Assembly (NCBI GenBank): GCA_046292385.1
Contig: JBKBRF010000006.1
Location: 64,001-128,000 of the forward strand
Direction: 5' to 3'
Origin: Armatimonadota bacterium
GTDB taxonomy: Bacteria; Armatimonadota; SYMT01
DNA: 64,000 nt
This document shows, one piece after another, positions 4,068 through 62,875 of the stretch (position 1 is its first letter; each line of letters opens with the position of its first letter). Both the position numbers and the translations under genes were made by a program. Below the pieces are notes generated by a model. That model made no database searches. It had not been told where the DNA came from and worked only from the letters and a program-made list of their open reading frames with translations.

Positions 4068-4107
4068 GGTTCGACTTTAGCCTTTAGCCTTCTGCCTTTA
4101 GCCTTAA
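4068..4107 (-). repeat. Heptamer tandem repeat (AAAGGCT-like) ending in GTCGAACC
   Basis: Minus strand reads AAGGCTAAAGGCAGAAGGCTAAAGGCTAAAGTCGAACC. Homologue at 31463-31522. Confidence 0.75.
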
Positions 4108-5309
4108 GGTCGGTTCCAGTAGATCTTCAGGTTGCGCGTGGCGCGGCCGGAGGCGACCAGGTCGATGCGTCCGTCGCCGTTCAGGTCGGCGGCGGTGAGG
4201 TCCTCGCACGCCATTCCGTCCTCGTCGATCGGCTTCTTCTCCCACGCCGTGCCGGCCGCGTCGGTGGGGACGTAAGCGGCCACGCCGACCTTTCCGGTGG
4301 CATCCTTGCCGCGCCATCCGATCAGCAGCTCGTCGCCGGGCTTGCCGTCGACGTCGGCGCACCAGACGCCGTGACCGTCCCGCAGCGTCGCGTCGAGCAC
4401 GCGGCGGTCCCAGAGCGGTCCCGCGCCCTCGGTGTAGACGACCACCTCGTTGCCGTGCCATGGCTCGATCGTGGCGAGGTAGCGCTTCCCGTTGGGAAGC
4501 TTGCCGAGCTTGATCTCGCTGCTTCCCCGCGGCGCCCGCGGGGACTCGTGCCCGCTGCCGAGCTTCGTCCGGCCCCACTTGCCGTCCGGGCCGCGGTCCA
4601 GCAGGAAGACCCCCTCGAACCCGGCGATCAGGATCTCCTCGGCGCGGTCGCCGTCCCACTGCACCGGCCAGAGGTTGTGGGTGACGTGGAGCGTGTCGTC
4701 GGCGATCTCCCGAGTCCACGGGTCTGTGGCCGGGTTCGCGGGGGGACGATAGACGACCACCCGCACCCCCGCGCCTTCGAACTCCGGCGCCTGGTTGCCG
4801 CGGCCGTGCAGGGGCACCATCACCAGCTCCTGCTTGCCGTCGCCGTCCACGTCGGCCCAGCGCATGCGGTGGACCGTCGGCTCCGGCTCCAGGTTCACCG
4901 GCTTCCAGGGCTGACGCGGGTCTTCCGGTCGCACCAGCCAGTGGACGCTGCCGCTTCCCACCGTGTCCGCTGGCTTCCAGAACGCGCCGAGCGCAAGCTC
5001 CGCGCGGCCGTCGCCGTCCAGGTCGGAGGCGGCGATGCAGACATTGTCTCGCGGCGTGGCGTCGCTCAGGATCGTGTGACGCTCCCAGGTCGGGTTCTGA
5101 TACCAGCGGACCTGGTTCTCATTCACCGCGATGATGTCCGGCTTGCCGTCGGCGTTCATGTCGGCCACCGTTACCGCGTAGCCGATGCTAAGCTCTGGAT
5201 CGATCGTCTGCGCCTCAAAACGGGGGAACGAGTCCTGGGCGGCGGTGAGGCTCGTGCCCACGCCGGCCAGCATCAGGGCGCCCAGGCTCCACTTGAAAGC
5301 GGTCCGCAT
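4104..5309 (-). CDS. Secreted FG-GAP/VCBS-repeat beta-propeller protein
   Basis: Signal peptide and repeated DxDGDG loops (ADMNADGKPD, DLDGDGRAE, DVDGDGKQE, DLNGDGRID); PWHGNEV. Confidence 0.85.
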   Translation of the reverse strand: MRTAFKWSLGALMLAGVGTSLTAAQDSFPRFEAQTIDPELSIGYAVTVADMNADGKPDIIAVNENQVRWYQNPTWERHTILSDATPRDNVCIAASDLDGDGRAELALGAFWKPADTVGSGSVHWLVRPEDPRQPWKPVNLEPEPTVHRMRWADVDGDGKQELVMVPLHGRGNQAPEFEGAGVRVVVYRPPANPATDPWTREIADDTLHVTHNLWPVQWDGDRAEEILIAGFEGVFLLDRGPDGKWGRTKLGSGHESPRAPRGSSEIKLGKLPNGKRYLATIEPWHGNEVVVYTEGAGPLWDRRVLDATLRDGHGVWCADVDGKPGDELLIGWRGKDATGKVGVAAYVPTDAAGTAWEKKPIDEDGMACEDLTAADLNGDGRIDLVASGRATRNLKIYWNRP

Positions 5310-5312
5310 CAA

Positions 5313-6278
5313 TCACTCCTCTTCGAACCCGATCTCCTGTTCGATTTCCGCGTGCCGCGGCGTATCTCCTCGGGCACCTGAGCGGGACCGGAGCAGCGCC
5401 AGGTAGCGCTCCAGCTCGGGCGGGAGCGGCGACTCCATCTCCATCCGCGCGGAGGTGACCGGATGCGTAAAGACCAGGCGGAAGGCGTGGAGGAAGAGGC
5501 GGCCGAGCTCCGGCTCCGAACCGCGGCCGAACAGGTCGTCGCCGGCGATCGGGTGTCCGAAGTGCGCGCAGTGGAGGCGGAGCTGGTTGGTGCGCCCGGT
5601 CACCGGCTCCAGCTCCAGCAGCGTGTGCTCCGGGAGCCGCTCCACAACTCGCCAGCGGGTGTGCGCGGGCCGGCCGGTCTCCCGGATGCCCCACTTCGGG
5701 AACGCCTCCGGATCCGAGCCGATCGGCGCCTCCCACTCCCCGGCCTCACCCTCCGGCGCCCCATGGACGAGCGCCAGGTAGCGCTTCTCCACCTGCTTCT
5801 GCTGGAACTGCACCGTGAGCCGGGAGAGCGCGCGCTGGGTCTTCGCGATCACGATCAGGCCGGAAGTGGAGCGGTCGAGCCGGTGGACCATCCCCGGGCG
5901 GACCGGCGGCTCTGCCCCGCCCAGCACGTTGAAGTGGTGCGCCAGCGCGTTCGCCAGCGTCCCGGAGCGGTGCCGGCCGGCGGGGTGGACCACCATCCCG
6001 GCCGGCTTCTCCACCACCGCCAGCGCGTCGTCCTCGAAGTAGATCCGCAGCGGGATCTCCTCGGGAGTCATCGCGCTCTGCTCGTCCAGGTCGAGCTCCG
6101 CCGTCACCAGGTCGCCGGCCGAGACCCGCCAGCCCGCCGGACGGGGGAGGCCGTTCACGCGGACCTCTTCCCGGTCGAGCGCCAGGCGCAGCCGCATCCG
6201 GCTGAGACCCGGTATCCGCGCGCTCAGCACCCGGTCCAGCCGCTCCGTGTCCTCTCGCGGGCTCACTTCGAAGCGCAT
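5313..6278 (-). CDS. RluA/RluD-family RNA pseudouridine synthase with S4 domain
   Basis: RLDRVL S4 start, KPAGMVVHP, catalytic HRLDRSTSG, TGRTNQLRLH, LHA. Confidence 0.95.
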   Translation of the reverse strand: MRFEVSPREDTERLDRVLSARIPGLSRMRLRLALDREEVRVNGLPRPAGWRVSAGDLVTAELDLDEQSAMTPEEIPLRIYFEDDALAVVEKPAGMVVHPAGRHRSGTLANALAHHFNVLGGAEPPVRPGMVHRLDRSTSGLIVIAKTQRALSRLTVQFQQKQVEKRYLALVHGAPEGEAGEWEAPIGSDPEAFPKWGIRETGRPAHTRWRVVERLPEHTLLELEPVTGRTNQLRLHCAHFGHPIAGDDLFGRGSEPELGRLFLHAFRLVFTHPVTSARMEMESPLPPELERYLALLRSRSGARGDTPRHAEIEQEIGFEEE

Positions 6279-6480
6279 TCACCCACACCTGGCCTCCCCC
6301 AATAGCCGCCCGGTCGCTCCTCCATCGGATAATCTCCCACCGCTCCACCCAAAGGGCTAACAACAATTCGCCTGCAAGGTGCACTATGGTAGAGTGGAGC
6401 CCGACCGCCGGTCGGCCCCCCTACCTTCCTATCCGGGGCGCCGAGAGCGCCTCGATCCCTCTCTTCCCAGGAGTCACACC

Positions 6481-7038
6481 GTGAAGCTTCGCGCTGGAAT
6501 CGCGGCGACCTGCGTGGTCGCCATCGCTGGACTATCGATCGCGGCGGGCGCCGCCCCGCGCCGGGATGATTCCGGCCTGCCCGTCGACGAGGTCAAGCGC
6601 GGCCTGAAGATCGCGCCGGTGCCGCTGAACCTCAAGGGCAAGAACAAGGCGCTCGTCGGCAAGGGCAGCTACATCGTCAACGCGCAGGGCGGCTGCAACG
6701 ACTGTCACACCAACCCGTCCTACGCACCGGGCGGCAACCCGTTCGCGGGCGAGCCGGAGCAGATCAACGCGGATCACTACCTCGCCGGCGGGCAGCAGTT
6801 CGGGCCGTTCGTCTCCCGGAACCTGACGCCGGACGAGCAGGGTCGCCCCGCGGGGATGACGTTCAAGGAGTTCAAGCAGGTCCTCCGCACCGGTAAGGAC
6901 CTGAGCGGCACGACCCTGCAGGTGATGCCGTGGCCGGTCTACGGCAAGATGACCGACAAAGACCTGCGCGCGGTGTACGAGTACCTCCGCGCCATTCCGC
7001 CGGCTCAGCCCGGCACCACGCCTCCGCCGGCCGAGTAA
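6481..7038 (+). CDS. Periplasmic/secreted mono-heme cytochrome c
   Basis: AGGAG RBS before GTG, signal peptide, CNDCH heme motif, NLTPD, MPW axial-ligand region. Confidence 0.85.
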   Translation: MKLRAGIAATCVVAIAGLSIAAGAAPRRDDSGLPVDEVKRGLKIAPVPLNLKGKNKALVGKGSYIVNAQGGCNDCHTNPSYAPGGNPFAGEPEQINADHYLAGGQQFGPFVSRNLTPDEQGRPAGMTFKEFKQVLRTGKDLSGTTLQVMPWPVYGKMTDKDLRAVYEYLRAIPPAQPGTTPPPAE

Positions 7039-7064
7039 CACGCAGCGATTACCGGCCAGCCAGA

Positions 7065-7110
7065 GAACGGGGAGGGTGCCGCGGAGCGCCCTCCCCGTTC
7101 CGGATTTTTC
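7065..7110 (+). terminator. Stem-loop terminator between convergent cytochrome genes
   Basis: GAACGGGGAGGGTGC / GCGCCCTCCCCGTTC stem followed by ATTTTTC. Confidence 0.65.
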
Positions 7111-8468
7111 TACAGCGAGCGGAGGAACGCCACCAGGTCGGCCTTTTGCTGCAGCGTAAGGTTGAGCTGGAACCGGGTGTCGTAGAACTGCACCACGTCG
7201 AGCAGCGTCGCCGCGGAGCCGTCGTGGAAGTACGGCGCCCGAGCGGCGAGGCCCCGCAGCGGGGAAACCTTGAAGCGGTCCATGTCGGACCACTTGCCGG
7301 TAATCAGGGCCCGCCCGGGATCGGTGGTGGAGCGGACCTCCCCAGTGCTCCGGTTCCGGAAGGTATAGAGCGGCACGTCGGAGCTCCGGCGCTGCGGGGC
7401 GCTCACCCCGATATCCTGCAGGACGCCCACGGAGCTGCTGCCGACGTTCGGCGCGTTGTGGCAGCTCGTACAGGTGGCGGTGACGGCGGGCGCCCCCAGC
7501 ACGTCGTTGAACCCCGCCACCCCGGTGACGGTGAACCGCTTGCGGTTGAAGATCACCTCTCCGCGCGCGACCGACTGCCGCTCAGCCCGCACCGCCTTGT
7601 TGGAAGCCCGCGACTTAGCCCACTTGGAGAAAAGCTTGAACGCGATCGGGTTGAACGGCTTGCGGCCGCCGAACGGATCGTTGATGCCGGGCTGGTACTT
7701 CTGCTTCGAGAGCAGCCTCGGACCGCCGCGGGCACCCTCCGCGGTCACCTTCCCGGCCGAGCTGTCGCGGATCTGGGCGTGGAAGAGCCCGCGCTCGAAC
7801 TTCACGATCTCGGCGAGCTGCGCGTCGGTCGGGCGGGCGCCGGCCTGCGCGTGGCCCAGGGTGGCGTCGAGCGCCTGGCTGGCCAGGTTCTGCTCCAGCG
7901 TGAAGCCCGGCGTGGTCTGCCGCCCGTCCCACATGATCGTGCTCTGGAACTTGAGGTTCGCGGCGGGGAGGGAGCGGCGGAACAGCGAGAGCTCCGCGGC
8001 GCTGGCGAAGCCGTAGGGATCGTCGACCGCCTCCAGCGTGAACTCCGCCTCCTGGGGCATCGGCAGCCCGATGCGGAAGACGCCGCGGCTCAGGAGCAGC
8101 GCGTAGGCGGACCGCTTCGCTTCCAGGGTGGAAACGTCCGCGTGCGGCGAGACGGTGCCGTCGTTGGTCCGGAAGAGCGGGTCCTCGCCGCTCGTCTCCT
8201 CGAACCGGCGCCGGGCACTGGCCGCGGAGAGCGACCATCCGTCCGACTCCGCGTGGCAGGTGTCGCAGCTTCGCCCGTTGGTGCCGAGCTGCTGGAAGAA
8301 CGGGCCGGAGGTATCGATCCGGTTCCGCTTGTTGACAGTGAGCGAGGCGCCGGTCTCATTCTCGATGGGACGGGGCGCCGTCTTCGGGCCGGCACCCGCG
8401 GCGGTAACCACCAGGGCGCCGAGGCCAGCGGAAATGCCGAGGGCGACGACGTGTCGGGGGGAAGGCAA
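7110..8468 (-). CDS. Di-heme cytochrome c peroxidase/MauG-like protein
   Basis: Signal peptide, two CxxCH motifs (CDTCH, CTSCH), TDPGRA, FKVSPLRGL, APYFHDGS; AGGAG RBS before TTG. Confidence 0.85.
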   Translation of the reverse strand: MPSPRHVVALGISAGLGALVVTAAGAGPKTAPRPIENETGASLTVNKRNRIDTSGPFFQQLGTNGRSCDTCHAESDGWSLSAASARRRFEETSGEDPLFRTNDGTVSPHADVSTLEAKRSAYALLLSRGVFRIGLPMPQEAEFTLEAVDDPYGFASAAELSLFRRSLPAANLKFQSTIMWDGRQTTPGFTLEQNLASQALDATLGHAQAGARPTDAQLAEIVKFERGLFHAQIRDSSAGKVTAEGARGGPRLLSKQKYQPGINDPFGGRKPFNPIAFKLFSKWAKSRASNKAVRAERQSVARGEVIFNRKRFTVTGVAGFNDVLGAPAVTATCTSCHNAPNVGSSSVGVLQDIGVSAPQRRSSDVPLYTFRNRSTGEVRSTTDPGRALITGKWSDMDRFKVSPLRGLAARAPYFHDGSAATLLDVVQFYDTRFQLNLTLQQKADLVAFLRSL

Positions 8469-8683
8469 GGGACAACTCCTGCGAAGCGCGGATAACAGCA
8501 GAAGCGGTTGCTCGGCCGCACTCCCAGCCTCTGATTATGGGCTTCCGGCCGTCGCATTTCCACCTCCGAACGGTCGATTTCTCTCGAGCCGTCCGTCCCA
8601 CCCATCGCAGGAGGCGCAGCTCAGGACGGCTGCCGGAGCAGCGTGAGCCCCACCGTTATCCGGCGGAGCCACCCCCAGTACGC

Positions 8684-11105: not shown

Positions 11106-11110
11106 GTGGG

Positions 11111-15795: not shown

Positions 15796-15803
15796 AACGC
15801 TAC

Positions 15804-15819: not shown

Positions 15820-15828
15820 AATGGGTCT

Positions 15829-16034
15829 CCGAACGAACGCGAAGACGCGAAGTCACGCGAAGGACGCGAAGGTGGAATGGAGCACGCTAACCCGCGCGCG
15901 AGTGAACTCGGCGCTACATAGAGCGAAGCCCGCCTGCGCGGGCTGGGAACGCGGTGACACGGTCTACCCAGCTTCTCCCCTTCATGTTTTCTTCGCGTCC
16001 TTCGCGCAAACTTCGCGCCTTAGCGTTCGTTCGG
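15829..16034. repeat. Inverted-repeat (REPIN/MITE-like) element with CGCGAAG sub-repeats enclosing a REP
   Basis: CCGAACGAACGCGAAGACGCGAAG..GGACGCGAAG (15829-15871) is mirrored by CTTCGCGTCC..AGCGTTCGTTCGG (15991-16034). Confidence 0.75.
15900..15945 (+). repeat. REP-like family A copy
   Basis: GAGTGAACTC..GCTACATAGAGCGAAGCCCGCCTGCGCGGGCTG. Nearly identical at 30211-30257 and inverted at 53813-53863. Confidence 0.85.
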
Positions 16035-23030: not shown

Positions 23031-23383
23031 CCGAACCCTTTCAGGAGATGAGGGGATGTGGGAACGGGGATGAGGGGGATGGGCAGCCGGTTTGAGCTGT
23101 AGCTTCCACCCAGGTTGTCCGGTCTCCCGCCTCGGCCCGGCGCCGTTCGGTTATACAGCGACGGGGATGATTATCGGTAGGGAGGCGGTCGGAGTGCGAC
23201 CGCGCGCTTCACGATACTACGCCTCGTGCCGCGCTCCCTGGCGGCGCCGCTGCCCACCGGGGAATTGCCCCGGCCCGGCTTGCCGCGGGAGAAAGAGAAC
23301 GAGAAGGAGAACGAGCTGGGTTCGGTTGGCTGCCCATCCCCACCATCTCCCCCAGAATCCCCACATCTCCTGAGAAGGTCCGG
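23031..23383. repeat. Inverted pair of family G repeats with CCGAACC ends
   Basis: CCGAACCCTTTCAGGAGATGAGGGGAT..GGGCAGCC (23031-23088) and an inverted copy at 23318-23383, preceded by (GAGAAC)n hexamers. Confidence 0.75.
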
Positions 23384-23389
23384 CGCGAA

Positions 23390-26300
23390 TCAGGCCCTCC
23401 GCATGAAGCCGTGGATGCCGAAGGTGAAGCCGGCCTCCCGGAGAGCGGGGGCGAGCGGGGTTTCCTGCGCGGGGCGGCCGTCGACCTCTTTGATGAACAC
23501 CGCGCGGCGGGCGCCGGTCTCCACCAGGTTCGCGAGCGCGCCGGCGATCTCGGCCGCGACCTGCGCCGGCTCACGGTCCGGCAGCCCTTCGAAAAACGTC
23601 AGAAGCTGGCGCTCGGCGCGCCCCATCCAGGCGGCGAGGGCGCCGTCGACCAGCACCACCAGCGCTCCGGCGGCACGGGCGGGACGGCGGCCTTCTTCTC
23701 GCTCCGGCCAGGGGAGCGCCGCGCCGTAGGGGTTGGCGGGGTCGGTGGCGGCGAGGAGCACCGTCTGCGGCTCCTCTTCCGGGTCGCGGAGAGTCCGGAG
23801 GCGGTCGAGGGCGCCGGGGAGGGCGAACTGGGTGCCGCCGCGGCCGCTGACGAAGTAGCCGCGGCGGAGGTGGCCGCTCTCCTCCATCCGACGCAGCACC
23901 GGGTAGACGCTGGTGAAGCCGCCGGGGGTCCCCTCGGCGTGGACCGCTTCCCGCGTGAGCACGCCGTGCCGCTCCAGGAGTTGCCGCGCCGCGGCGGCCA
24001 GGCGCTCCGTGGTGCTGGGGCTGCCGAAGAGCAGGCTCTCCACCAGCGACCACCGCCCGGAGACCTCCGGCGGGAGCAGCGCGCGCGGACGCAGGCCGAG
24101 CCGGCCGTAGGTCCGACGCTCCAGTCGCCGCCGCGGGGAGCCGTACGCGCGGAGCGGCTGGAGGGTGTCGTTCGTCACCTCGCCGGCCCAGACCAGATCC
24201 CAGAGCGCCGCCGTCACCTCCGGCTGGAACTTGCCGCCGCACGCCTGGAGGAGCTGCGCGAAGAAGGAGGCGCCGCGGGTGCGGAGGTGCTCCCGGATCA
24301 GGTGGTGCAGCTCGTGGTCCGGCGCGTCGGTCCGCGCGGGGAGCAGCAGCGGCGCGTGCTCGGTCAGGTAGAGGCCGAGGCGGCCGTCCCGCTCGCCGAG
24401 AGAGCCGGCGCCGACCCACAGCACCGTCCCGGAGGCGGTGAGCATGTCGAGCTCGTGCGAGTCGTACCGTTCCAGGCGGGCCGGCAGCACGCGCGTCTCC
24501 AGGTCGGACGCCGGGATCGAGGTCCCCTGGAGCTGTTCGATCACCTCCAGCAGCGCCTCCGGTCCGCGCCGGCGCGCCCCGATCCCCTGCCACGCCAGGT
24601 AGAGCCGGCCTAGGGCGCTCTGCTCCACCGGCTCCACTTCCCGCCGCAGCCGCGCCAGCGAGCGCTGCCGCAGGGTCCGCAGCACGCCGGCATCGCACCA
24701 CTCGCGGCCGGTGCCCCCCGGGCGGAGTTCCCCCTGCACCACTCGGCCGGCGCTCTCCATCCGCTGCAGCGCCGTCAGCACCGGCCCCTCGCCGGTCCCG
24801 AGCCGCAGCGCCACCTCGTGCACGGTGAACGGCCCGTGCGTCCGGGCGTACCGCGCCACCAGGTCGCCCACCGGATCGTCGACCGGCTCCAGAAATGCGA
24901 CCGGCAATCCCGGAGGCGGGGGGATGCCGAGCGCGTCCCGGTAGCGGGCCGCGTCTTCCGCGGCGATGTACCGCTCCTCGCCGCCCACCGGCAGCCGCAC
25001 CACCCGACGCTGCCGCTCGAGCTGGGTGAGGACTTCGGCAACGGTGACCTCTTCCCGCGCGGAGCGGTGCTCCAGCTCCTCGAACGAAAGATCGCCCAGG
25101 CGCAGGAGCAGGTCGTGGAGGCCGTCGGCGTGCCGGACCCGCCGCTCCGGCGTGAGATGCTGAAGCTGCAGCTCCAGCTCCGCCAGCACGTCCGGATCGA
25201 GCAGCTCCCGCAGCTCCACCTCGCCCAGCAGCTCCCGGAGCTGGGACGGATCGACCGTCAGCGCCTGCGCCCGCCGCTCCGCCAGCGGCGCGTCGCCCTC
25301 GTACATGAAGTTGGCGACGTAGTTGAACATCAGCGACGCCGCGAACGGCGAGGGGGAGCGGGTGGTGACCGGCACCACGCGGACCGCCCGGCGGCGGATG
25401 TCGCGCAGCAGCTCCGTCAGCGCCGGGAGGTCGAACACGTCCCGCAGGCACTCCCGGTAGGTCTCCAGCACGATCGGGAAGGAGCGGTAGCGGGCGGCGA
25501 CGTTCAGCAGGTCTGCCGCGCGCTTCCGCTGCTGCCAGAGCGGCGCGCGCTGCCCCGGGTAGCGGCGGGGGAGGAGCAGCGCGCGCATTGCCGCCTCGCG
25601 GAAGCGGGAGGCGAAGAGCGCGTTGACGACGGCGGAGCCGCTCGCCTCCCGGGCGCCGCCCCCGCCGACGCTGAGCTGGCGGATCACCAGCTCTTCCAGC
25701 TCCTCCGGGTCCGGGATCACCGCCTCGACCGGCGGCGGCTCCTCCGCCTCCGCGAAGCGGGCGACGATGCCGTCGTCGGTCCAGATCAGGTCGAGCTCCT
25801 GCTCCGTCCGCTCCCGGAACATCGCCCCGATCGCCATCGCCCACGCGGAGTGAACCTTGCCCCCGAACGGGCTCAGGATGCAGACGCGCCAGTCGCCCAG
25901 CTCGTCGAGGTACCGCTCCACCACGATGGTGCGGTCGTCCGGCACCGAGCCGGTCGCCTCCGCCTGCGCCTCCAGGTAGGCAAGCAGATTGGTCGCCGCG
26001 GCGGGCGTGAGGGAGTGCGTCTCGGCCAGGAAGCGGACCGCCTCCTCCGGCGCCATGCCGCGGACGGTACGACAGAGCGCCCCGATCGCGCGGCCGAACT
26101 CGAGCGGCCGGCCGGCCGTCTCCCCATGCCAGAACGGCATCTTCCCCGGCTGCCCCGGCGCGGGGGAGACGAGGACGCGGTCGTGCGTGATCTCCTCCAC
26201 CCGCCAGGTGGTGGCGCCCAGCACGAACGTCTCTCCGGGACGCGTCTCCAGTACCATCTCCTCGTCCAGCTCGCCGACCCGCCGCGAGGGGCCCCGGCCG

Positions 26301-28125: not shown

Positions 28126-28992
28126 ATGCCGCTGCGAAAGCCAACCGAGACCGGTCTTGAAGACTGCCCGCTGGCGGCGACGCAGTGGAGCGACCGCGGC
28201 CCGCGCGTGCTGCTGCTGCACGCGATCGGGTTCGACCGCCACACCTGGATGCCGGTGCTGCCGTCGCTGGAGGGGTACAGCGTGGTCGGCGTCGACCTCC
28301 CCGGCCACGGGGAGAGCGGCAAGCCGCCGGACGCGGACTACGGCCTGATCTCCCTCGGCAGCCGGATCGTGCGGTTCCTCGACGAGCTGGAGTGGGAGGA
28401 CGCGGTGCTGGTGGGGAACAGCCTCGGCGGCGGGACGGCGCTGGCCGCCGCGCTGCTGGCTCCGCATCGGGTGCGAGGACTGGCACTGCTCGGATCGGTC
28501 GGCATGCGGGGAGGGCTGCCGGCGGTCGGCCGCCTTGCCATGCTCCCGCTCGTCTCCCAGCTCGGAGGCCTGGCGCCGCTCCTGGCGATCCGCCTGGGGC
28601 TCCAGTACGCGCGCGCCCGGCGCAGCAGCCTTACGGCCGAGCGGTGCATCTCCTGCCAGGGCTACCTCGGCTCGGTCGACGGTCGGATCGCCTTCTTCCG
28701 CACCTTGCGCCAGCTCTATGGGCACGACATGGAGCGGATGATGCGCCACTACCACGAGATCCGCTGCCCCACCGCCGTCCTGCAGGGCGACCGCGACCCC
28801 CTCATCCGGCCCACCCATGCCCAGCGGCTGGTCCAGGCGATCCCCGGCGCAGAGCTGATCCACCTGCACCACTGCGGTCACTTCCCGCAAGAAGAATGCC
28901 CCGAGGAGACCGGCAACGCACTGCGAGGCTTCCTGAACCGGATTCACGCTGCGGCCCCGGCAGGAGGTGTAAGAAAGGAGATGAGGGGATGA
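28126..28992 (+). CDS. Alpha/beta fold hydrolase
   Basis: LLLHAIG, DLPGHGES, nucleophile GNSLGG, GDRD, CGHFPQEE. Confidence 0.9.
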   Translation: MPLRKPTETGLEDCPLAATQWSDRGPRVLLLHAIGFDRHTWMPVLPSLEGYSVVGVDLPGHGESGKPPDADYGLISLGSRIVRFLDELEWEDAVLVGNSLGGGTALAAALLAPHRVRGLALLGSVGMRGGLPAVGRLAMLPLVSQLGGLAPLLAIRLGLQYARARRSSLTAERCISCQGYLGSVDGRIAFFRTLRQLYGHDMERMMRHYHEIRCPTAVLQGDRDPLIRPTHAQRLVQAIPGAELIHLHHCGHFPQEECPEETGNALRGFLNRIHAAAPAGGVRKEMRG

Positions 28993-29170
28993 AACTGGGG
29001 ATATGGGGATGGGCAGCCAAACGGGCTTGGCTCCTACTCATAAGCCTACTCCAGTTCGGCTGGCCTCTGGAGAAAGAGAACGAGAAAGAGAATGAGAAGG
29101 AGCTGGGTTCGGAAGGTTCCCATCCCCCTCATCCCCGTTCCCCGTCCCCCCATCTCCTGAAAACGTTCGG
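28967..29170. repeat. Inverted pair of family G repeats with hexamer tract
   Basis: GTGTAAGAAAGGAGATGAGGGGAT..GGGCAGCC (28967-29018); (GAGAA.)n-CTGGGTTCGG..CATCTCCTGAAAACGTTCGG (29069-29170). Confidence 0.75.
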
Positions 29171-29185
29171 CCCCCCTGACGTGCC

Positions 29186-30210: not shown

Positions 30211-30308
30211 GAGTGAACTCCGGGGCTACATAGAGCGAAGCCCGCCTGCGCGGGCTGAGCGGGCGGAAGGTTCGGGAATTCATCCCTCATCCTTCCGCCC
30301 TCATCCCT
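30211..30308. repeat. REP family A copy followed by GGTTCGGG and a (TCATCCC)n heptamer tract
   Basis: Matches 15900-15945. The heptamer tract is the inverse of 37545-37583. Confidence 0.8.
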
Positions 30309-31340: not shown

Positions 31341-31462
31341 CGAGGAGAGCTCCAAACCGGCGCGCTGCCTCACACCAGCGAGAGGCGGAAGCGCCCGGGG
31401 GCCTGCGCGGCCCACATTAGATAAGCCGGGAGCCTGCCCGAACCCTCCCCCTTGGGAAGGCA

Positions 31463-31570
31463 AAAGGCCCTTAAAGGCTAAAGGCCCTTAAAGGCTAGAG
31501 GCAGAAGGCTAAAGTCCGAACCGTCCGTGCACGGGCGGCCCTGCTCCTGCTCCTACTCCTGCTCTTGCTC
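31463..31570 (+). repeat. AAAGGCT heptamer tract - TCCGAACC - (CTGCTC)n hexamer tract
   Basis: Read directly; same modular layout as 37545-37628. Confidence 0.75.
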
Positions 31571-31661
31571 GCTGGCGACCCTGGGGTTCCGGCATGTCCT
31601 CGATGGCCCGTGCTTCGCCTCGACCCTGGTTAGAACCCTACGCAGACGGATGAACGCCCGC

Positions 31662-33156: not shown

Positions 33157-33286
33157 GGGAGCGGAGTGGGAGAGTGGGAGAGACTCGCTGCAGGTTTGCA
33201 AGTTGGCAGGTTGCAGGTTCCGAACCCCTGCCATCGGTAGGATCAACCTGCAACCTGCAACCTGCTAACCTGGAACCTGTTAACCT
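33157..33286. repeat. Inverted (GCAGGTT)n / (AACCTGC)n heptamer tracts around TCCGAACCC
   Basis: GCAGGTTTGCAAGTTGGCAGGTTGCAGGTTCCGAACCC, then CAACCTGCAACCTGCAACCTGCTAACCTG. Similar tract at 62841-62875. Confidence 0.75.
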
Positions 33287-33331
33287 CGGCCCTCTCTCGC
33301 TCCACCCCAGAAGAAGCAACCGGTCACCGGA

Positions 33332-37544: not shown

Positions 37545-37628
37545 AAGGATGAGGGATGAGGGATGAGGGATGAATCCGAACCCTCGGTGAACGGATGTTC
37601 CTGCTCCTGCTCCTACTCTTGCTCTTGC
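37545..37628 (+). repeat. (GGATGAG)n heptamer - TCCGAACCC - (CTGCTC)n hexamer
   Basis: Read directly from the sequence. Confidence 0.8.
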
Positions 37629-37761
37629 GGGACGTGCCGACCCCGGCGCCTCCGGCACGTCTTTGGAATAGCCAACGGGCGGTTGAAACCGCGGCAACCA
37701 CGGCACGAAGTTTTATCCCCCGGACGGGGGACCGCCTTCGCGAACTAAGAGGGCCTGGTTC

Positions 37762-44176: not shown

Positions 44177-45202
44177 CTACTTCTGCGTGTAGGTCCACTC
44201 CAGGACGACGTCGCCGACCACCTTCAGCGACTCCGGGCTGCACTTGTCCGGCGTGTCTTCCAGGGTGTGCCACCAGGAGTGGCCGGGGCCGTAGTTGAAG
44301 TCGATCAGGTCGATCACGCGGAGGCCTTTGGCGTGGAGCTGCACGTGGTCGTCCTCGATCGGGCCGCCGATCCGCTTCGGGAAGTGGCGGGCGTAGCCGA
44401 GACGGTGGGCGGTGTCGTAGACGCTGTAGAGCACGTCCCGCGCGGCCTGGAGCGAGTTGCTCTCCATCGGGATCTGGAGGTCGCGGTCGCCGACCATGTC
44501 GAGCAGGATGCCCTTCTTCGGCGTGTCGGCGGGGAGGTGCTCCGCGAAGTAGCGGGAGCCGAAGAACATGTCTTCCAGGCCGGGGCCCACGTCCTCGCCG
44601 TCGAACAGGACGATCATCACCGGGACGGGCGGGGGCGAGGCCTTGAAGACGCGGGCCGCTTCGAGCAGCACGGCGACCCCGGAGGCGCCGTCGTTCGCGC
44701 CCGCGATCGGGGTGGCGCGGCGGGCGGCGGTCCGCTCGTAGTCGGCGGTGGGGCGCGTGTCCCAGTGGGCGGTAAGCAGCACGCCCTTGTCGTCGCCGCC
44801 CGTGCCGGTGCCCTTCCACCGCGCGATGACGTTGGTCATCGGCAGCTTCTTGCCGCCGCTCTCCACCGTAAAGTCCTGCCGCTCGACCCGGTCCGCCAGC
44901 GGCTTCAGCGTCTCGACCAGGTAATCCCGGCACGCCGCGTGCCCTTTGCTGCCGGGCACGCGCGGACCGAACGCCACCTGCTTCTCGAGCTGCGCGAACG
45001 CCGCCGCCTTGTCGAACGCCGGCCGCTTTCCGCCGGCAGGCGCGTTGTCCTCCCGGCTGCCTGCCTGGAACAGCAGCAGCGCGCCGAGCGCCGCGCCGGC
45101 GCCCAGCAGCAGCCAGCGCGGGCGCAGGGCGGCGGGCTGGGCGGCGGGGGCGCTACCCGGACGGCGCGCCGCCATGGCTGCGGAACTGTTTGAGGTAGGC
45201 AT
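44177..45202 (-). CDS. M28 family peptidase / glutaminyl cyclase-like (start 45202 or 45175)
   Basis: QVAFGPRVPG, AHWDTRP, GANDGASG, FDGED, LLDMVG, EDDH, WHT..DT. Confidence 0.9.
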   Translation of the reverse strand: MPTSNSSAAMAARRPGSAPAAQPAALRPRWLLLGAGAALGALLLFQAGSREDNAPAGGKRPAFDKAAAFAQLEKQVAFGPRVPGSKGHAACRDYLVETLKPLADRVERQDFTVESGGKKLPMTNVIARWKGTGTGGDDKGVLLTAHWDTRPTADYERTAARRATPIAGANDGASGVAVLLEAARVFKASPPPVPVMIVLFDGEDVGPGLEDMFFGSRYFAEHLPADTPKKGILLDMVGDRDLQIPMESNSLQAARDVLYSVYDTAHRLGYARHFPKRIGGPIEDDHVQLHAKGLRVIDLIDFNYGPGHSWWHTLEDTPDKCSPESLKVVGDVVLEWTYTQK

Positions 45203-46275
45203 GGGTCAGCGGCTCGATCTCTCCGTCCATGACGGCGATGATGTTCCCGGTCTCGAAGTTGGTCCGGTGGTCCTTCACCAGCGTGTAGGGCTGGAAGACG
45301 TAGGAGCGGATCTGGCTGCCCCATTCGATGGCGCGCTGCTCCCCGCGGATCGCCGCCATCTGCTCTTCCTGCTTCTTCCGCTCGATCTCCGCCAGGCGGG
45401 AGCGCAGCACCTTCATCGCGAACTCGCGGTTCTTGAGCTGCGAGCGCTCGTTCTGGCACGCCACCACGATCCCGGTGGGGAGGTGGGTGATCCGGACCGC
45501 CGTCTCGTTCTTCTGGACGTTCTGGCCGCCGGCACCGCCGGAGAGATAGGTGTCGATCCGAAGCTCCTTCGGATTGATCTCCACCTCCACGTCCTCCTCG
45601 ATCTCCGGGACCACGTCCAGGCTCGCGAAGGAGGTATGGCGGCGCTTGTTCGCGTCGAACGGCGAGATACGGACGAGTCGATGGACCCCGTGCTCGCTCT
45701 TCAGGTTCCCGTAGGCGTACGGGCCCTTCACCAGCACGGTCACGCTCTTGTAGCCGGCTACTTCCCCCGGCACCTCGTCCAGGATCTCCGTGGTAAAGCC
45801 GGCCCGCTCCGCCCAGCGCAGGTACATGCGCAGCAGGATGGAGACCCAGTCGCACGCCTCCGTACCACCCGCGCCGGCGTTGATCTCCATGATCGCGTTG
45901 GCGGCGTCGTGCTTACCGGAGAGGATGTCAGCCAGCTCCAGCCGCTCCCACTCGCCCTGCGCGGCGTCCAGCTCGCCGCGGATCTCGTCCGCATAGCTGG
46001 AGGGGTCCGCCTCTTCCGCCGCAAGCTGGAGCAGCACCTCGGCGTCATCCAGCCGGCGGCGCAGCGTGTGCCACGGCTCCACCGCCTGCTCCAGGCGGCT
46101 CAATTCCTGCATTGTCTTCTGGGCGGCCTCGGCCTGGTCCCAGAAGCCCGGCTTCAGGGTCTCCGCGCGGAGACCGGCAATGCGCGCATCTTTGCCCGGG
46201 ACGTCAAAGATGCCTCCCCAGCTCTTCGACGCGTTCCGAAAGAGCTGTTACTTCTCGGCCAAGTTCTTCAAGCAT
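45153..46275 (-). CDS. prfB: Peptide chain release factor 2, with programmed +1 frameshift
   Basis: ORF1 MLEELGREVTALSERVEELGRHL ends CTT-TGA-C (46203-46209). The +1 frame continues DVPGKDAR.. into SPF and GGQ motifs. Confidence 0.95.
46203..46219 (-). other. prfB programmed frameshift site
   Basis: GGGGAGG-CAT-CTT-TGA-C: internal SD, slippery codon and UGA stop. Confidence 0.92.
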
Positions 46276-46422
46276 TCGTCATCCAGACTTGCGCGAGCGT
46301 GTCGCGTTTAGGGCTTCGCCCAGGGTGTAGCGTTTAGGGGGTAGGGTGTAGGTCTGTGGTGAGCCGGGGTGCCACTCGTGCACCTGTCCCTCTGTCCCTC
46401 TATCGCTCCGTCCCGAAGGGCG

Positions 46423-53769: not shown

Positions 53770-53812
53770 GGGGTTGTGGGAAGTCATTGACACGTTTTGC
53801 AGTGGAGTTCTG

Positions 53813-53863
53813 AGCCCGCGCAGGCGGGCTTCGCTCCGTGTAGCCTCGACTTTAGTCCGAGGC
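53813..53863 (-). repeat. REP family A copy (inverted)
   Basis: AGCCCGCGCAGGCGGGCTTCGCTCCGTGTAGCC is the reverse complement of the family A core. Confidence 0.8.
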
Positions 53864-59275: not shown

Positions 59276-59300
59276 CGGAACATACTTCGCGAGGGGACCG

Positions 59301-60443
59301 ATGCGGATCTTGATGACGGCCGACACGGTGGGCGGGGTCTGGACCTACGCCCTCGAGCTGGCGGGCGCCCTCTCCACCCGCGGCGTCGAGGTGGTCCTCG
59401 CTACCCTCGGCGACCGCCCCTCACCGTCCCAGCGGGAGGCGGCGCAGCGCGTCCCGGGGCTGCAGCTGCGGAAGGGGGCGTTCCGCCTGGAGTGGATGGA
59501 CGACCCGTGGGACGACGTCGACCGCTCCTCCGAGTGGCTGCTCGAGCTGGAGGCAGAGGTGCGGCCGGACGTGGTGCACCTCTGCAGCTTCAGCCACGGC
59601 TCACTGCCGTGGACCGCGCCGTCGCTCCTGGTCGCCCACTCCTGCGTGCTCTCGTGGTGGGAGGCGGTGCGGGGGGAAGCGGCGCCGGCCGAGTGGGAGA
59701 CCTACCGGCGGCGCGTCGCGGCGGGGCTGCGCGGCGCGGACCTGGTCGCGGCACCGACGCGGGCGATGCTCGACGCGATTACCCGTCTTTACGGAAGCTT
59801 CCCTGAGGGGGTGGTGCTGCCGAACGGCCGCGCGCCGGAGGCGTTCTCGCCCAGGCAGAAGGAGCCATTCGTGCTGAGCGCGGGCCGGCTCTGGGACGAC
59901 GCGAAGAACCTCTCAGCCCTGGCGGCGGTCGCGCCGAAGGTCGGGTGGCCGGTCCACGTGGCCGGGTCGCTGGAGCATCCCTCCGGACGCACGGAGCCGG
60001 CGGCCGGCGTGGAGTGCCTGGGCCGCCTGGAGCCGCCCGTGCTGGCAGAGCAGCTCGCCCGCGCGGCGATTTACGCGCACCCGGCGCGCTACGAGCCGTT
60101 CGGCCTGGCCGTGCTGGAAGCGGCTTACTCCGGCTGCGCGCTGGTACTCGGCGACATTCCCAGCCTGCGGGAAGTCTGGGGCGACGCGGCGACCTTCGTG
60201 CGGCCCGACGACTCGGAAGCGCTCCTCGCCGCGCTGGTCCGGCTGATCGAGAGGCCGGAGGAGCGGGCGCGCATGGCGCTGCGGGCGCGAGCGCGGGCGT
60301 TCGACTACACCGCCGAGGCGATGGCGGACCGGTACGTGGAGACCTACCGGCGCCTCTCCGGTCGGCAGGGACGGGGCTCGCGGAGCGCGGCGCAGGCCCG
60401 GAAGAGTGGAGAGCCCAGGGAGGTGATCTCGTGCGGGTCGTGA
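59301..60443 (+). CDS. GT4 glycosyltransferase (alternative start 59268)
   Basis: MTADTVGGVWTY, AGRLWDDAKN, YEPFGLAVLEA. Confidence 0.9.
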   Translation: MRILMTADTVGGVWTYALELAGALSTRGVEVVLATLGDRPSPSQREAAQRVPGLQLRKGAFRLEWMDDPWDDVDRSSEWLLELEAEVRPDVVHLCSFSHGSLPWTAPSLLVAHSCVLSWWEAVRGEAAPAEWETYRRRVAAGLRGADLVAAPTRAMLDAITRLYGSFPEGVVLPNGRAPEAFSPRQKEPFVLSAGRLWDDAKNLSALAAVAPKVGWPVHVAGSLEHPSGRTEPAAGVECLGRLEPPVLAEQLARAAIYAHPARYEPFGLAVLEAAYSGCALVLGDIPSLREVWGDAATFVRPDDSEALLAALVRLIERPEERARMALRARARAFDYTAEAMADRYVETYRRLSGRQGRGSRSAAQARKSGEPREVISCGS

Positions 60444-61585
60444 TGTTCTACCATTCGCTCTGTTCCGACTGGAACCACGGCAACGCACACTTCCTACGCG
60501 GCGTCGTGTCGGAGCTGATCGCGCTCGGGCACGACGTCCGCGTCTACGAGCCGCGCGACGCCTGGAGCGTGGAGAACCTGGTCCGAGACCACGGCCCCGA
60601 GGCGGTGGAGGCGTACCGCGAGGCATATCCGCAGCTCAGCTCCCGCCGCTACGACCCGGCGAGCCTCGACCTGGACGATGCGCTCTCCGGCGCGGAGCTG
60701 GTGATCGTACACGAGTGGAGCGAGCACGACCTGGTCCGCCGCATCGGGGCGCACCGGCGGGCCGGGGGCCGCTACCGGCTGCTGTTCCACGACACGCACC
60801 ACCGGGCGATCACGGAAGAGGCGAGCATGGCCCGGTACGACCTCTCCGGGTACGACGGGGTGCTCGCCTTCGGGGAGGTGCTGCGGGAGCTCTACCTGCG
60901 GAAGGGTTGGGCGCGCCGCGCCTGGACCTGGCACGAGGCGGCCGATACCCGCGTCTTCTATCCCCGCGCCGCGGGCGCGTGCGCAGGCGACCTGGTCTGG
61001 GTCGGCAACTGGGGCGACGAAGAGCGGACCGCGGAGCTGCACGAGTTCCTGCTCGGACCGGTGAAGACGCTGGGGCTCCGGGCGCGAGTGTATGGCGTCC
61101 GCTACCCGGAGCACGCCCTCGCCGCCCTGGAGGAAGCGGGCATCGAATACGGCGGCTGGCTGCCGAACTACCGCGCGCCGGAGGTCTTCGCCCGCTTCAA
61201 GATGACGGTCCACGTTCCGCGGCGGCCCTACGTCGAGGCGCTGCCGGGCATCCCGACGATCCGCCCCTTCGAGGCGCTCGCCTGCGGCATTCCGCTCGTC
61301 TCCGCGCCATGGTTGGACGCCGAGGGGCTCTTCACGCCCGGCGAGGACTTCCTGACGGCGCGGGACGGCGCGGAGATGACGCGGCACCTCGTCGCCTTAC
61401 GGGACGACGCCGGCCTGCGCGAGCAGGTAGCGGCGCGAGGGCTGCGGACTCTCCGCGCACGCCATACCTGCGCCCATCGCGTGGACGAGCTGTTGAGCAT
61501 TTATGAGGAGCTGAAATCGGTCGGACGGGGACGCCAGGCCGCGGCCGCCGCTCCCAACGCCTGGAAAGGAGCCGTGACGGCATGA
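60431..61585 (+). CDS. CgeB-family (Glyco_trans_1_2) glycosyltransferase 1
   Basis: SDWNHGNAHFLRG, DTHHR, PTIRPFEALACG, HTCAHR. Confidence 0.88.
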   Translation: MRVVMFYHSLCSDWNHGNAHFLRGVVSELIALGHDVRVYEPRDAWSVENLVRDHGPEAVEAYREAYPQLSSRRYDPASLDLDDALSGAELVIVHEWSEHDLVRRIGAHRRAGGRYRLLFHDTHHRAITEEASMARYDLSGYDGVLAFGEVLRELYLRKGWARRAWTWHEAADTRVFYPRAAGACAGDLVWVGNWGDEERTAELHEFLLGPVKTLGLRARVYGVRYPEHALAALEEAGIEYGGWLPNYRAPEVFARFKMTVHVPRRPYVEALPGIPTIRPFEALACGIPLVSAPWLDAEGLFTPGEDFLTARDGAEMTRHLVALRDDAGLREQVAARGLRTLRARHTCAHRVDELLSIYEELKSVGRGRQAAAAAPNAWKGAVTA

Positions 61586-62670
61586 GCCGCCCGCTGAACA
61601 TCGCCTTCTTCGGTTCGAGCCTCGTCTCCGCCTACTGGAACGGCGCGGCGACCTACTACCGCGGGATCATCCGCGCCCTCCACGAGCGAGGGCACCAGGT
61701 CACCTTCTACGAGCCGGATGCCTACGACCGCCAGGAGCACCGCGACATTCCGGACCCGGACTGGGCGAAGGTGGTGGTCTACTCCGCCGACGGGGAGGAC
61801 GAGGTCCACTGCTGTGTGGAGAGCGCCCGCGGCGCCGATCTCGTGGTGAAGGCGAGCGGCGTGGGCGTCTTTGACGAGCTGCTGGAGGCGGCGGTACTGG
61901 AGCTGCAGCAGCCCGGCACGCTGGTGGCGTTCTGGGACGTCGACGCGCCCGCCACGCTCGACCGGGTCGGCAGCAACCCGAGCGACCCCTTCGCGCCGCT
62001 GATCCCCCGGTACGACATGGTCCTCACCTACGGCGGCGGCGCCCCGGTGGTGAACGCCTACCGGGGCTTCGGCGCGAGGGAGTGCATCCCGGTCTACAAC
62101 GCGCTCGATCCGAGCACGCATCATCCGGTCGATCCGGATCCCCGCTTCGAGGCGGAGCTTGGCTTCCTCGGCAACCGGCTTCCGGACCGCGAGGCGCGAG
62201 TGGAGGAGTTCTTCCTCCGCGCCGCTGCGGAGGTGCCCGGCTCCCGTTTCATGCTCGGCGGCAGCGGCTGGGGCGACAAGCCGATGCCGCAGAACGTGAG
62301 CTACGTGGGACACGTCTACACGCGCGACCACAACGCCTTCAACTGCACACCTCGCGCGGTGCTGAACATCAGCCGGGAGAGCATGGCCCGCTACGGCTTC
62401 TCCCCCGCCACCCGCGTCTTCGAAGCGGCCGGCGCCGCGGCCTGCCTGATCACCGACCACTGGGTCGGTATCGAGCTGTTCCTGGAGCCCGGCACCGAGG
62501 TGCTGGTGGCGCGGGACGGGAACGAGGTCGCCGAGCTGGTAAGCGGCCTGGACGAGGCGCGCGCCCGAGAGATCGGTCAGGCCGCCCTGCGCCGCGTGCT
62601 GGCCGAGCACACCTACGCCCACCGGGCGGAGCAGGTGGAGGGGCTGCTGCGCGAGCGGCTGGGGGTGTAA
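61582..62670 (+). CDS. CgeB-family glycosyltransferase 2
   Basis: SAYWNGAATYYRG, WDVDAP, SPATRVFEAAG, HTYAHR. Confidence 0.88.
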   Translation: MSRPLNIAFFGSSLVSAYWNGAATYYRGIIRALHERGHQVTFYEPDAYDRQEHRDIPDPDWAKVVVYSADGEDEVHCCVESARGADLVVKASGVGVFDELLEAAVLELQQPGTLVAFWDVDAPATLDRVGSNPSDPFAPLIPRYDMVLTYGGGAPVVNAYRGFGARECIPVYNALDPSTHHPVDPDPRFEAELGFLGNRLPDREARVEEFFLRAAAEVPGSRFMLGGSGWGDKPMPQNVSYVGHVYTRDHNAFNCTPRAVLNISRESMARYGFSPATRVFEAAGAAACLITDHWVGIELFLEPGTEVLVARDGNEVAELVSGLDEARAREIGQAALRRVLAEHTYAHRAEQVEGLLRERLGV

Positions 62671-62678
62671 GGCTGCGA

Positions 62679-62875
62679 GTGTAAGAAAAGGAGATGGGGA
62701 GATGGGGAACGGGGATGAGGGGGATGGGCAGCCATCCGAACCAAGTTCTTACTCCTACTCCCACTCCACTCTTACTCCTACTCGAACCGCTCGGCGCACT
62801 CTATCCGTCCCCACGAGTGAGGGTGCCCCTCGCGTGGCACCAACCTGCAAACCTGAAACCTGCCAACCTGAAACC
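62679..62875 (+). repeat. Family G repeat - TCCGAACC - hexamer tract - AACCTG heptamers, inserted inside the operon
   Basis: GTGTAAGAAAAGGAGATGGGGAGATGGGGAACGGGGATGAGGGGGATGGGCAGCCATCCGAACC, then (CTACTC)n and (AACCTG.)n. Confidence 0.8.

Follow-up and report, generated by a model that had tools for sequence, protein, structure and literature searches.

CCGAACC as a shared inner end-word of purine-rich tandem-repeat arms at gene ends in an Armatimonadota genome

We examined a 64,000-nucleotide stretch of an Armatimonadota bacterium (assembly GCA_046292385.1, contig JBKBRF010000006.1, positions 64,001 to 128,000 of the forward strand), in which short tandem repeats of several kinds run, on their purine-rich strand, into the same seven letters, CCGAACC. 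This stretch is called the window, and coordinates are positions of the whole window unless a contig is named (it is G000:C6:64001-128000, with G000 the genome studied and C-numbers its contigs). Our results revealed a strong enrichment of this word at array edges across the genome, a recurring module anatomy with a sharp boundary at the word, a shared phase of the two main arm classes together with intermediate units, a link to genes of the PF05635 family, and a gain of arms at two gene ends in comparison with other genera. Our best reading is that the arms are parts of one family of modular intergenic elements, specific to this lineage and expanding in it, whose members begin at stop codons in most cases. 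Specifically, we see about an even chance that CCGAACC is the conserved, non-repetitive inner end (the cap) of the purine-rich arms of one amplified, PF05635-associated element lineage. The original prediction, made from the letters of the window, had read the repeats as unrelated and the word as a site for a mobiliser of the HUH or REP (repetitive extragenic palindrome)-associated tyrosine transposase (RAYT) kind or as the product of templated repeat addition. It stands in part: the shared word, the module boundary and the link to a gene are borne out, but the unrelatedness of the repeats, a HUH/RAYT enzyme and templating by a reverse transcriptase are not.

The word at array edges

Tandem Repeats Finder (TRF), run on the whole assembly (7.04 Mb, 69% G+C, 91 contigs, 98.45% complete), returned 3350 rows, 417 of them for period 7, the most frequent period not divisible by three. 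Rows with periods of 6-10 and 13-17 were merged into 608 strand-biased short-period arrays, and an array was called capped when CCGAACC lay within -8 to +22 nt of the 3' edge of its purine strand. This holds for 124 of the 608, against about 2 expected from the genome frequency of the word, and CCGAACC is the top-ranking 7-mer at these edges. On the same arrays, the orientation controls gave 3 for the reverse complement at the 5' edge, 24 for the forward word at the 5' edge, and 28 for the reverse complement at the 3' edge. The enrichment beside short tandem repeats that had been proposed as a check is therefore present genome-wide, and the shared end-word occurs far more often than chance would allow, nor does slippage account for it. 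Further, among the 1882 occurrences of CCGAACC in the genome (both strands together), 110 (13.8-fold enriched) directly follow 40 nt of sequence with a purine content of 75% or more, and the 15-mer GGATGAATCCGAACC has 40 genome copies against none for its reversed control.

In the window itself, all of the tracts named in the original prediction were found where it had placed them. The total of CCGAACC there is at chance level (16 versus 14.8 expected, standard deviation 3.5), and it is the position of the word, not its number, that is unusual, 7 of the 16 exact occurrences standing at array edges. That total would suit a reading of the word as an artefact of chance or composition, a reading that the edge counts with their controls, the purine-stretch enrichment and the 15-mer refute and to which we give practically no probability.

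Anatomy of the module and its boundary

The consensus around the word is RRRT-CCGAACC-YYCCG-NNNN-CGGRRG, and by their right-hand partner the 124 capped arms divide into 42 of type a, 25 of type b (hexamer), and 57 others. Type a consists of a mini-hairpin (CTCCGTGAACGGGAGG), whose stem is lengthened by the ACC of the word (ACCCTCCG/CGGGAGGT), followed by (CTCCTG/CTACTC)n hexamers and CGCTGGCGACC..TCCGGCACGTCC; hairpins thus stand near both ends of the module, the word always precedes it, and conservation ends about 85 nt 3' of the word. Type b has a different small hairpin (e.g., TCCCGGTACGGGCA) with CTACTC or GTTCTC hexamers and takes in the G-rich units of the window. The remaining group is mixed, comprising true hairpins like 33185-33290, in which GGTTCGG and a complementary arm close the loop, facing unlike arms that each carry their own word (a GACAGAG and a GGATGAG arm, both capped, at C65 28644 and C13 16610), leaders of protein genes, and unique sequence. 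The outer boundaries of the elements merge into the tandem arrays.

Directly 3' of the word, types a and b have a significant hairpin, folding with lower minimum free energies (MFE) than shuffled sequences (-8.1 versus -6.0 and -4.4 versus -2.6, respectively), and single-sequence folds of 345 nt 3' of the word were no better than shuffles (z +1.5 and -0.8). A complementary arm lies within 700 nt downstream in only 26 of 111 exact capped copies, and no pairing was seen between the CTCCTG hexamers and GGATGAG or AAAGGCT arms (z -0.7 and +1.3). For these reasons the common design is not a hairpin; it is two inward-pointing purine-rich arms, on opposite strands, around a centre.

CCGAACC marks a sharp module boundary on its 3' side. 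A single arm variant, GGGATGAGGGCGGAAGGATGAGGGATGAAT-CCGAACC, continues into three or more distinct sequences on its right; type a, type b and a REP-like palindrome all occur beside one and the same arm variant, the similarity stopping at the word. The word also follows a combination of hexamers and AAGAGGCNG at 6 loci and therefore acts as punctuation between modules. Observations of this kind bring in a dedicated mobiliser, for which CCGAACC would be the recognition, cleavage or joining site, with arms and centres assembled combinatorially; in a variant, the centres would insert just 3' of the word, as IS200/IS605 elements do 3' of a short target. We consider the two forms, taken jointly, unlikely. 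They draw support from the sharp 3' boundary and the variety of unrelated sequences beyond it (57 other, 42 type a, 25 type b), from identical arm variants joined to different partners, from the facing unlike arms that are each capped (C65 28644, C13 16610), and from the 6 loci where the cap follows hexamers and AAGAGGCNG. The low share of capped arms with a complementary arm within 700 nt (26/111) tells against insertion into an existing hairpin loop as the common origin, and the enzymes are taken up below.

Relations among the arm classes

The cap is distributed unevenly among the unit classes. It is exact in 53 and present with one mismatch in 23 of 92 GGATGAG arrays; the corresponding figures are 39 and 14 of 80 for AAAGGCT-like arrays, 5 and 5 of 10 for GGAGTGCAGAGG, 12 and 8 of 71 for GACAGAG, 3 and 1 of 58 for GAGTGGGAG, 0 and 10 of 121 for hexamers, and 0 and 0 of 11 for TAGGGTG. 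Of the 124 capped arrays, 92 have GGATGAG or AAAGGCT arms. When 51 type a copies are aligned, both of these main arm types stand in one register to the word (..ATGAGGGATGAAT-CCGAACC versus ..CTAAAGGCTAAAG(T)-CCGAACC), and hybrid units in real arrays (GAGGGCG, GAGGGCA, GAAGGCA) bridge them. From this register and these intermediates we infer that GGATGAG and AAAGGCT arms are probably diverged forms of one RARGGNN-type array. The claim that the repeats are unrelated is thus not supported, at least for the two main classes.

The order of unit variants within arrays recurs, TAAAGGC TAAAGGC AGAAGGC TAAAGGC TAAAG being found at 8 or more loci. Because such orders recur at many loci, the arms were copied whole between loci and not grown locally. 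This bears on a proposal in which a nick or pause at CCGAACC leads to slipped synthesis that duplicates the 7 letters 5' of the word. The dominance of heptamer units (417/3350 TRF rows) would fit such growth, as would PF05635-flanking arms elsewhere in Armatimonadota, which often begin with the stop codon itself and look locally derived. Nevertheless, only a handful of unit classes exist, the recurring variant orders indicate that arrays are copied whole, the linker before the word varies, and no candidate nickase was found; we regard local growth as very improbable. A tree built from the 320 nt right of the hexamers, comparing arm type with right-hand module, was rejected, because conservation ends about 85 nt past the word and a real gene comes after the copy at 31516; most of its alignment was not homologous, and its end branches reached 0.55.

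PF05635 genes and other candidate enzymes

A profile search found 8 genes of PF05635 (23S-rRNA-IVS/Avd-like four-helix-bundle proteins) in the genome. All 8 lie between inverted tandem-repeat arms (inverted match 13-24 nt) that start at the stop codon of the upstream gene, and all 8 elements adjoin protein-coding genes and are not in a 23S rRNA helix. The earlier suggestion to look for genes flanked by the modules had listed four-helix-bundle genes among other types, and it is this type that proved to be linked to them, 3 of the 8 elements being capped. Those on C43 and C10 have GGATGAG arms with CCGAACC on the upstream arm, and the one on C1 has AAGGCAG arms with GGTTCGG on the downstream arm; because the word stands upstream in two and downstream in the third, it is not an expression signal of the PF05635 gene. 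The others have arms of GAGTGGGAG (C47), GAGAAG hexamers (C34), TAGGGTG (C49 and C25) and ACGCAATAC (C7). In 7 of the 8 elements the arms come from five abundant dispersed classes. The three capped proteins are mutually 54-83% identical and score below 80 against the other five, forming a subgroup of their own, and the two proteins with TAGGGTG arms are 65% identical.

Beyond this genome, we compared 52 PF05635 loci from 31 Armatimonadota genomes (the 8 here and 44 from 30 others). An exact inverted match of at least 12 nt between the 300-nt flanks is present in 37 of the 52, against 4 of 98 shifted controls. Across the phylum the arm unit varies from locus to locus, and in other Armatimonadota the stop codon itself is frequently the start of an arm beside a PF05635 gene (TAGTCGC.., TAGTGAA..). 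A BLAST search of the 8 elements against the genome found only arm and cap elsewhere, the similarity ending a few letters from the cap; an origin of the gene-less loops as internal-deletion derivatives of PF05635 elements was accordingly dropped as unsupported, arm and cap being all that they share.

Three further observations concern these genes and their arms. The C10 gene (G000:C10:107689-107910) departs from its C43 paralogue over the C-terminal third and, judging from the letters, is probably a frameshifted copy. At L027, L033 and L039, in three other Armatimonadota genomes, an armed PF05635 element seems to lie inside a large N6-adenine methyltransferase-type gene, with open coding sequence upstream and a ..DPACGSGHFL.. 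motif downstream, and may split or interrupt it. At G000:C62:11423-12013, at least 4 tandem copies of a unit of about 139 nt each carry TAGGGTG-type arms.

The search for enzymes bears on the mobiliser. The genome has no match to the reverse transcriptase profile PF00078, which leaves repeat addition templated by a reverse transcriptase without its enzyme at 98.45% completeness. The Y1 transposase profile (PF01797) gives two good matches, on C51 and C22. The C51 gene (G000:C51:25745-26600, IS200-like) lies right after a GGATGAG arm and CCGAGC at the end of a TPR-like gene, which would favour a mobiliser; its own inverted GCGAGGGGTTGAAAACCCCTCGC hairpins, however, show no relation to the cap region, the element occurs once in the genome, and its flanks too are single-copy save for the pre-existing GGATGAG arm. 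No arm was found near the C22 gene. Neither Y1 gene is flanked by the cap module, and neither explains the capped-arm family, so that the proposed HUH/RAYT mobiliser finds no footing in this genome. The only gene inside the elements encodes a four-helix bundle of about 120 aa, and we know of no nuclease or recombinase activity in PF05635/Avd four-helix bundles. No enzyme is thus tied to the word, and the absence of a reverse transcriptase match is a further point against the mobiliser; the exact cap in three diverged PF05635 elements is a further point for it.

Position relative to genes

All figures on gene context and stop codons rest on a crude gene call based on G+C at third codon positions (GC3). 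By that call, 54 of the 124 capped arms start within 25 nt of, or overlap, a stop codon on the same strand. The capped arrays comprise 34 in tandem-sense, 26 in tandem-antisense, 31 in convergent and 10 in divergent context, 15 inside a crude open reading frame (ORF), and 8 others; background gene pairs number 1583 tandem, 569 divergent and 514 convergent. Divergent context therefore makes up 10 of the 101 classifiable arrays, versus 21% of background pairs. Units such as TGAGGGA and TAAAGGC give a stop codon in every frame. GGATGAG and G-rich arms contain GGG runs, and AAAGGCT arms do not.

This placement raises the possibility that CCGAACC is an RNA-level signal of the 3' untranslated region (for processing, pausing or as a termination cue), kept by selection and acquired repeatedly. 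The sense-strand start of 54 arms at stop codons, the enrichment of convergent and depletion of divergent pairs, the extension of the type a stem by the final ACC of the word, and one G-rich arm of the window that runs into a canonical terminator instead of the cap are all consistent with such a role; the Xanthomonas and Nostoc repeats discussed below are likewise mostly transcribed, at most 50 bp from stop codons and on the sense strand, according to the available part of PMC4692102. The case is countered by 26 capped arms that are antisense to both neighbours and 10 between divergent genes, by the cap standing on the upstream arm of two PF05635 elements and the downstream arm of the third, and by the absence of the word from arms of this kind in sister genera. 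In addition, the hairpin 3' of the cap in types a and b is followed by a mixed pyrimidine tract with no T-run (no U-run in the transcript), unlike an intrinsic terminator, and canonical terminator sites in 40 kb were near expectation (8 and 9 versus 7.6 and 5.8). Overall, this reading of the word as an RNA signal seems unlikely to us.

Distribution and history

The related genomes recovered by genome search all belong to one phylum. A 15-mer search of 30 relatives did not turn up the word at arms, nor did a search of four family members with RRRRNCCGAACCYYCCG, where the sole match in G005 lies inside the gene of initiation factor IF-2; the single matches in G002 and G005 were set aside as chance. 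A genome contig collection gave 0 matches to a 21-mer, and a metagenome contig collection gave, for a degenerate 31-letter pattern, 2 chance matches without arms. The pattern of the word followed by hexamers gave 143 matches here, overlaps included; none of the four relatives compared has more than 1. In the sister genera G005 and G006, PF05635 genes have arms of other units, with no common end-word seen.

Two gene ends could be compared directly. The end of the Lhr gene is free of arrays in 3 of 3 relatives examined, and the end of the NAGPA gene has no arm in 4 of 6, with another tandem repeat in G001 and a short GAGTGGG-like run in G003. Because the Lhr and NAGPA ends of relatives are mostly without them, the arms were gained at gene ends in this lineage. 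At a third place, the spacer between glycosyltransferase paralogues (window 62671-62893), 6 hexamers here correspond to 18 ACTCYT units in the same orientation in G005 (L083), where CCCGAACC follows the hexamers just before the start codon; G004 (L082) has other repeats, of GTGCGG type. At least one hexamer array may, from this sequence comparison, predate the split of two genera.

Four metagenome runs were compared, their contigs being broken at repeats. The sequence of the 23289-23383 element recurs without change in contigs from two other runs (records 11 and 26). At a metagenome joint 37582->37764, 40 other letters separate the two sides, and the joint most likely represents a further copy at another place in the genome.

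How the capped arms may have arisen

In our preferred reading, the cap is the inherited inner end of one amplified lineage. An element consists of one or two purine-rich arms, one per strand, pointing inward from gene ends, with the capped arm followed by one of several centres: a GC hairpin with hexamers, a loop closed by GGTTCGG with a second arm, or a PF05635 gene. The arm units would change fast by slippage and unit replacement, so that classes such as GGATGAG and AAAGGCT diverge, and the single-copy cap beside the arm, which cannot turn over by slippage, would leave the boundary in place. Arm and cap together behave as one module, joined to many different right-hand partners, and the cap may be kept intact by selection or by copy-correction against dispersed copies. 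A role at mRNA 3' ends is conceivable as well, in that a transcript from either direction would read a stop-carrying purine arm, the cap, a hairpin and a pyrimidine tract. Inherited boundary, mobiliser site and RNA 3'-end signal are not exclusive of one another.

Several observations weigh against this preferred reading. Common descent of the capped arms is a step that we infer, and the rarer capped classes (GCAGGTT, G-rich, GGAGTGCAGAGG and GACAGAG) are only loosely like RARGGNN. The linker between the last unit and the word varies (T, TT, TTC, AT, ACT, G, GG), which fits imprecise joining as well as decay. The 57 other partners gave no hairpin signal 3' of the word (MFE -6.3 versus -5.9), and 26 capped arms are antisense to both neighbour genes. 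The cap is exact in all three capped PF05635 elements despite protein identities of 54-83%; drift alone would not predict this, which suggests that something keeps the cap. Finally, the gene call behind the placement at stop codons is crude (a GC3 filter giving 4757 ORFs, 78% of the genome coding).

A bolder extension would take PF05635 genes with tandem-repeat arms as an undescribed selfish or domesticated element that settles at stop codons, with CCGAACC serving in this lineage as the site where its machinery would recognise, cut or join arm modules. If true, arms and centres would be interchangeable parts and the combinatorial architecture would be explained; we think it quite unlikely.

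Comparison with known systems

REP sequences and bacterial interspersed mosaic elements (BIME) with their RAYT, and the IS200/IS605-derived palindrome-associated transposable elements (PATEs), are high-copy intergenic modules with small hairpins at gene ends, mosaic in arrangement and with a short fixed word by the hairpin. The modules described herein resemble them in their hairpins at gene ends, their mosaic arrangement and their fixed word. They differ in that no REP of GTAG type was seen here, the Y1 genes are not flanked by the cap module, and the tandem-repeat arms have no counterpart in REP/BIME or PATEs. Further, no TnpA cognate to a PATE of IS200/IS605 type was found in the genome.

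Tandem heptamers near gene ends are a known kind of repeat, and it is the shared end-word that is the new part. Intergenic heptamer repeats were described in Xanthomonas (GGGAATC) and Nostoc (GGGGAYT) (Rehm et al. 2015, PMC4692102). As far as the available passages of that paper go, they share with the arms here the tandem 7-nt purine- or G-rich units near stop codons on the sense strand (54/124 here), the frequent convergent and rare divergent inverted pairs, and a function that is unproven there; unlike them, this genome has many unit classes, a fixed 7-letter inner end, non-complementary hexamer partners, and in some cases PF05635 genes. In Geobacter metallireducens, paired tandem hepta- and octanucleotide sites were read as binding sites of a global regulator (Aklujkar et al. 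2009, PMC2700814). In the passages available, these too form opposite-strand pairs at variable distance, and one class, TCTCCGTS(Y), is the complement of GACGGAGA units here; the main-text passages do not mention a shared end-word or an enclosed gene of the kind found here. The TAACTGA direct repeats of marine Beggiatoaceae and cyanobacteria (PMC4679880, as far as its passages go) are likewise arrays of heptamers, reaching over gene ends and placing stops in all three frames, but have a single unit type and no end-word and mostly lie just upstream of start codons. Neither a shared end-word nor an enclosed PF05635 gene is mentioned in the passages of PMC4692102, PMC2700814 or PMC4679880.

PF05635 is the 23S rRNA intervening sequence (IVS) protein family (IVP/S23p ORF) and resembles Avd of diversity-generating retroelements, according to the available part of PMC10053308. 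The elements here are like 23S rRNA IVS in that a small four-helix-bundle gene lies inside long inverted arms, and unlike them in that they follow protein-coding genes and their arms are tandem repeats; unlike diversity-generating retroelements, they occur in a genome without a PF00078 reverse transcriptase match. A literature search on CCGAACC returned only primers and unrelated text, and no paper describing tandem-repeat arms around PF05635 genes was found, judged by title or abstract.

Tandem-heptamer arms at gene ends span many bacterial phyla, and their origin and role are a standing question. This genome offers an exceptionally clear handle on it: a fixed boundary word, more than 100 recent copies, interchangeable partners, and gene-bearing copies whose protein subfamily goes with the type of arm. 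Should CCGAACC turn out to be a recognition site, it would lead towards the machinery of spread and a role for orphan Avd-like proteins that lack a reverse transcriptase; as no more than an inherited boundary, it would serve as a marker for dating and tracing the spread of arms.

Elements and minor features of the window

The genes flanking the window elements are ordinary (Lhr helicase, hydrolase, PfkB kinase, AP-endonuclease-fold, DUF1287, AIM24, NAGPA, two glycosyltransferases). As had been predicted, pyrimidine hexamer tracts often follow the word, namely at five of the window's array edges. On the plus strand, the type a unit at 31457..31605 has an AAAGGCT arm (31457-31515), antisense to both neighbouring genes, which are on the minus strand; CCGAACC (31516-31522) is followed by the mini-hairpin GTCCGTGCACGGGCGG, (CTGCTC/CTACTC)n at 31540-31570, and CGCTGGCGACC..TCCGGCATGTCC at 31570-31599. 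A second type a unit (37545..37662, +) begins 3 nt past the TAG stop of the NAGPA gene with a GGATGAG arm, then CCGAACC (37576-37582), the mini-hairpin, hexamers (37599-37628), and a 9-bp hairpin GACGTGCCG..CGGCACGTC (37631-37661). The GGATGAG element at 30221..30308 (-) starts from the TAG stop of an AP_endonuc_2 gene (arm 30276-30308), its CCGAACC (30269-30275) being followed by the REP-like palindrome CTACATAGAGCGAAGCCCGCCTGCGCGGGCT. The AAAGGCT-type element at 4054..4106 (-) has its arm at 4075-4106, from the TAA stop (4104-4106) of an FG-GAP gene, closed by the variant word TCGAACC at 4068-4074 (on +) and followed by a small hairpin, CCTCCG..CGGAGG.

Among the G-rich elements, that at 23289..23383 (-) starts just past the Lhr helicase stop at 23390 and reads GGGCAGCCAA-CCGAACC (word 23319-23325), then (GTTCTC/CTTCTC)n hexamers (23289-23315). 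At 28960..29172, two units face each other on both strands: in the plus unit, a G-rich arm that reaches over the hydrolase stop leads into CCAAACGGG, which stands where the word would be, and CTACTC hexamers follow; the minus unit has a G-rich arm (29113-29170), CCGAACC (29106-29112) and hexamers (29070-29102) bounded by GTTCGG (29044-29049), and folds at z -2.9. The element at 62679..62875 (+) has its arm after a glycosyltransferase stop, GGGCAGCCAT-CCGAACC (word 62736-62742), CTACTC hexamers (62750-62783), TCGAACC (62782-62788) and, ahead of the next gene, an AACCTGC/AACCTGA arm (62842-62875). At 3717..3862 (+), after the stop of a DUF1549/DUF1553 gene, a hairpin with CTACTC hexamers without an arm is followed by a G-rich arm that runs into a canonical hairpin and T-run terminator (3828-3844) in place of the word.

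The GCAGGTT element (33164..33286, +) has GAGTGGGA units, a GCAGGTT arm (33189-33219) and a complementary AACCTGC arm (33244-33286), CCGAACC (33220-33226) forming the first letters of the loop; 33185-33290 is a true hairpin (fold z -5.9). At 46322..46414 (+), two unlike arms point at one another and the word is absent; the left arm has TAGGGTG units, the right one CTGTCCCT (complement of GACAGAG). The CGCGAAG-armed palindromic element at 15829..16034 had been listed with the others for its CCGAAC ends; these words are present, as CCGAAC/GTTCGG within a 16-mer (CCGAACGAACGCGAAG) of 20 genome copies, but they stand at the outer and not the inner ends of the arms, with a REP-like palindrome at the centre. 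It is related in style, yet a different case, the word being placed differently.

The palindrome GCCCGCCTGCGCGGGC (window 15922-15945 and 30234-30257, also 53807-53857) has 47 dispersed copies in the genome, inside the longer module CTACATAGAGCGAAGCCCGCCTGCGCGGGCT. Two lone 24-nt matches to a clustered regularly interspaced short palindromic repeat (CRISPR) family (Rfam RF01356, CRISPR-DR28), 14 kb apart and scoring 35.4 against a gathering threshold of 35, are both this dispersed REP-like palindrome and not regularly spaced repeats, which rules out a CRISPR array. The AACCTGA/AACCTGC units (62842-62875, 33244-33286) may resemble the conserved GAACCUGAAACC stretch of 23S rRNA domain I, perhaps by coincidence. 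A canonical intrinsic terminator (15-bp stem and TTTTT) at 7065-7110 (+), after a gene ending at 7038, indicates that the organism uses ordinary terminators as well. Finally, in the release-factor gene at 45153-46247 (-), with PCRF and RF-1 domains, the Pfam match runs from residue 1 of the longest ATG ORF and the stop-to-stop frame is longer; the longer frame may reflect the usual programmed frameshift of prfB.

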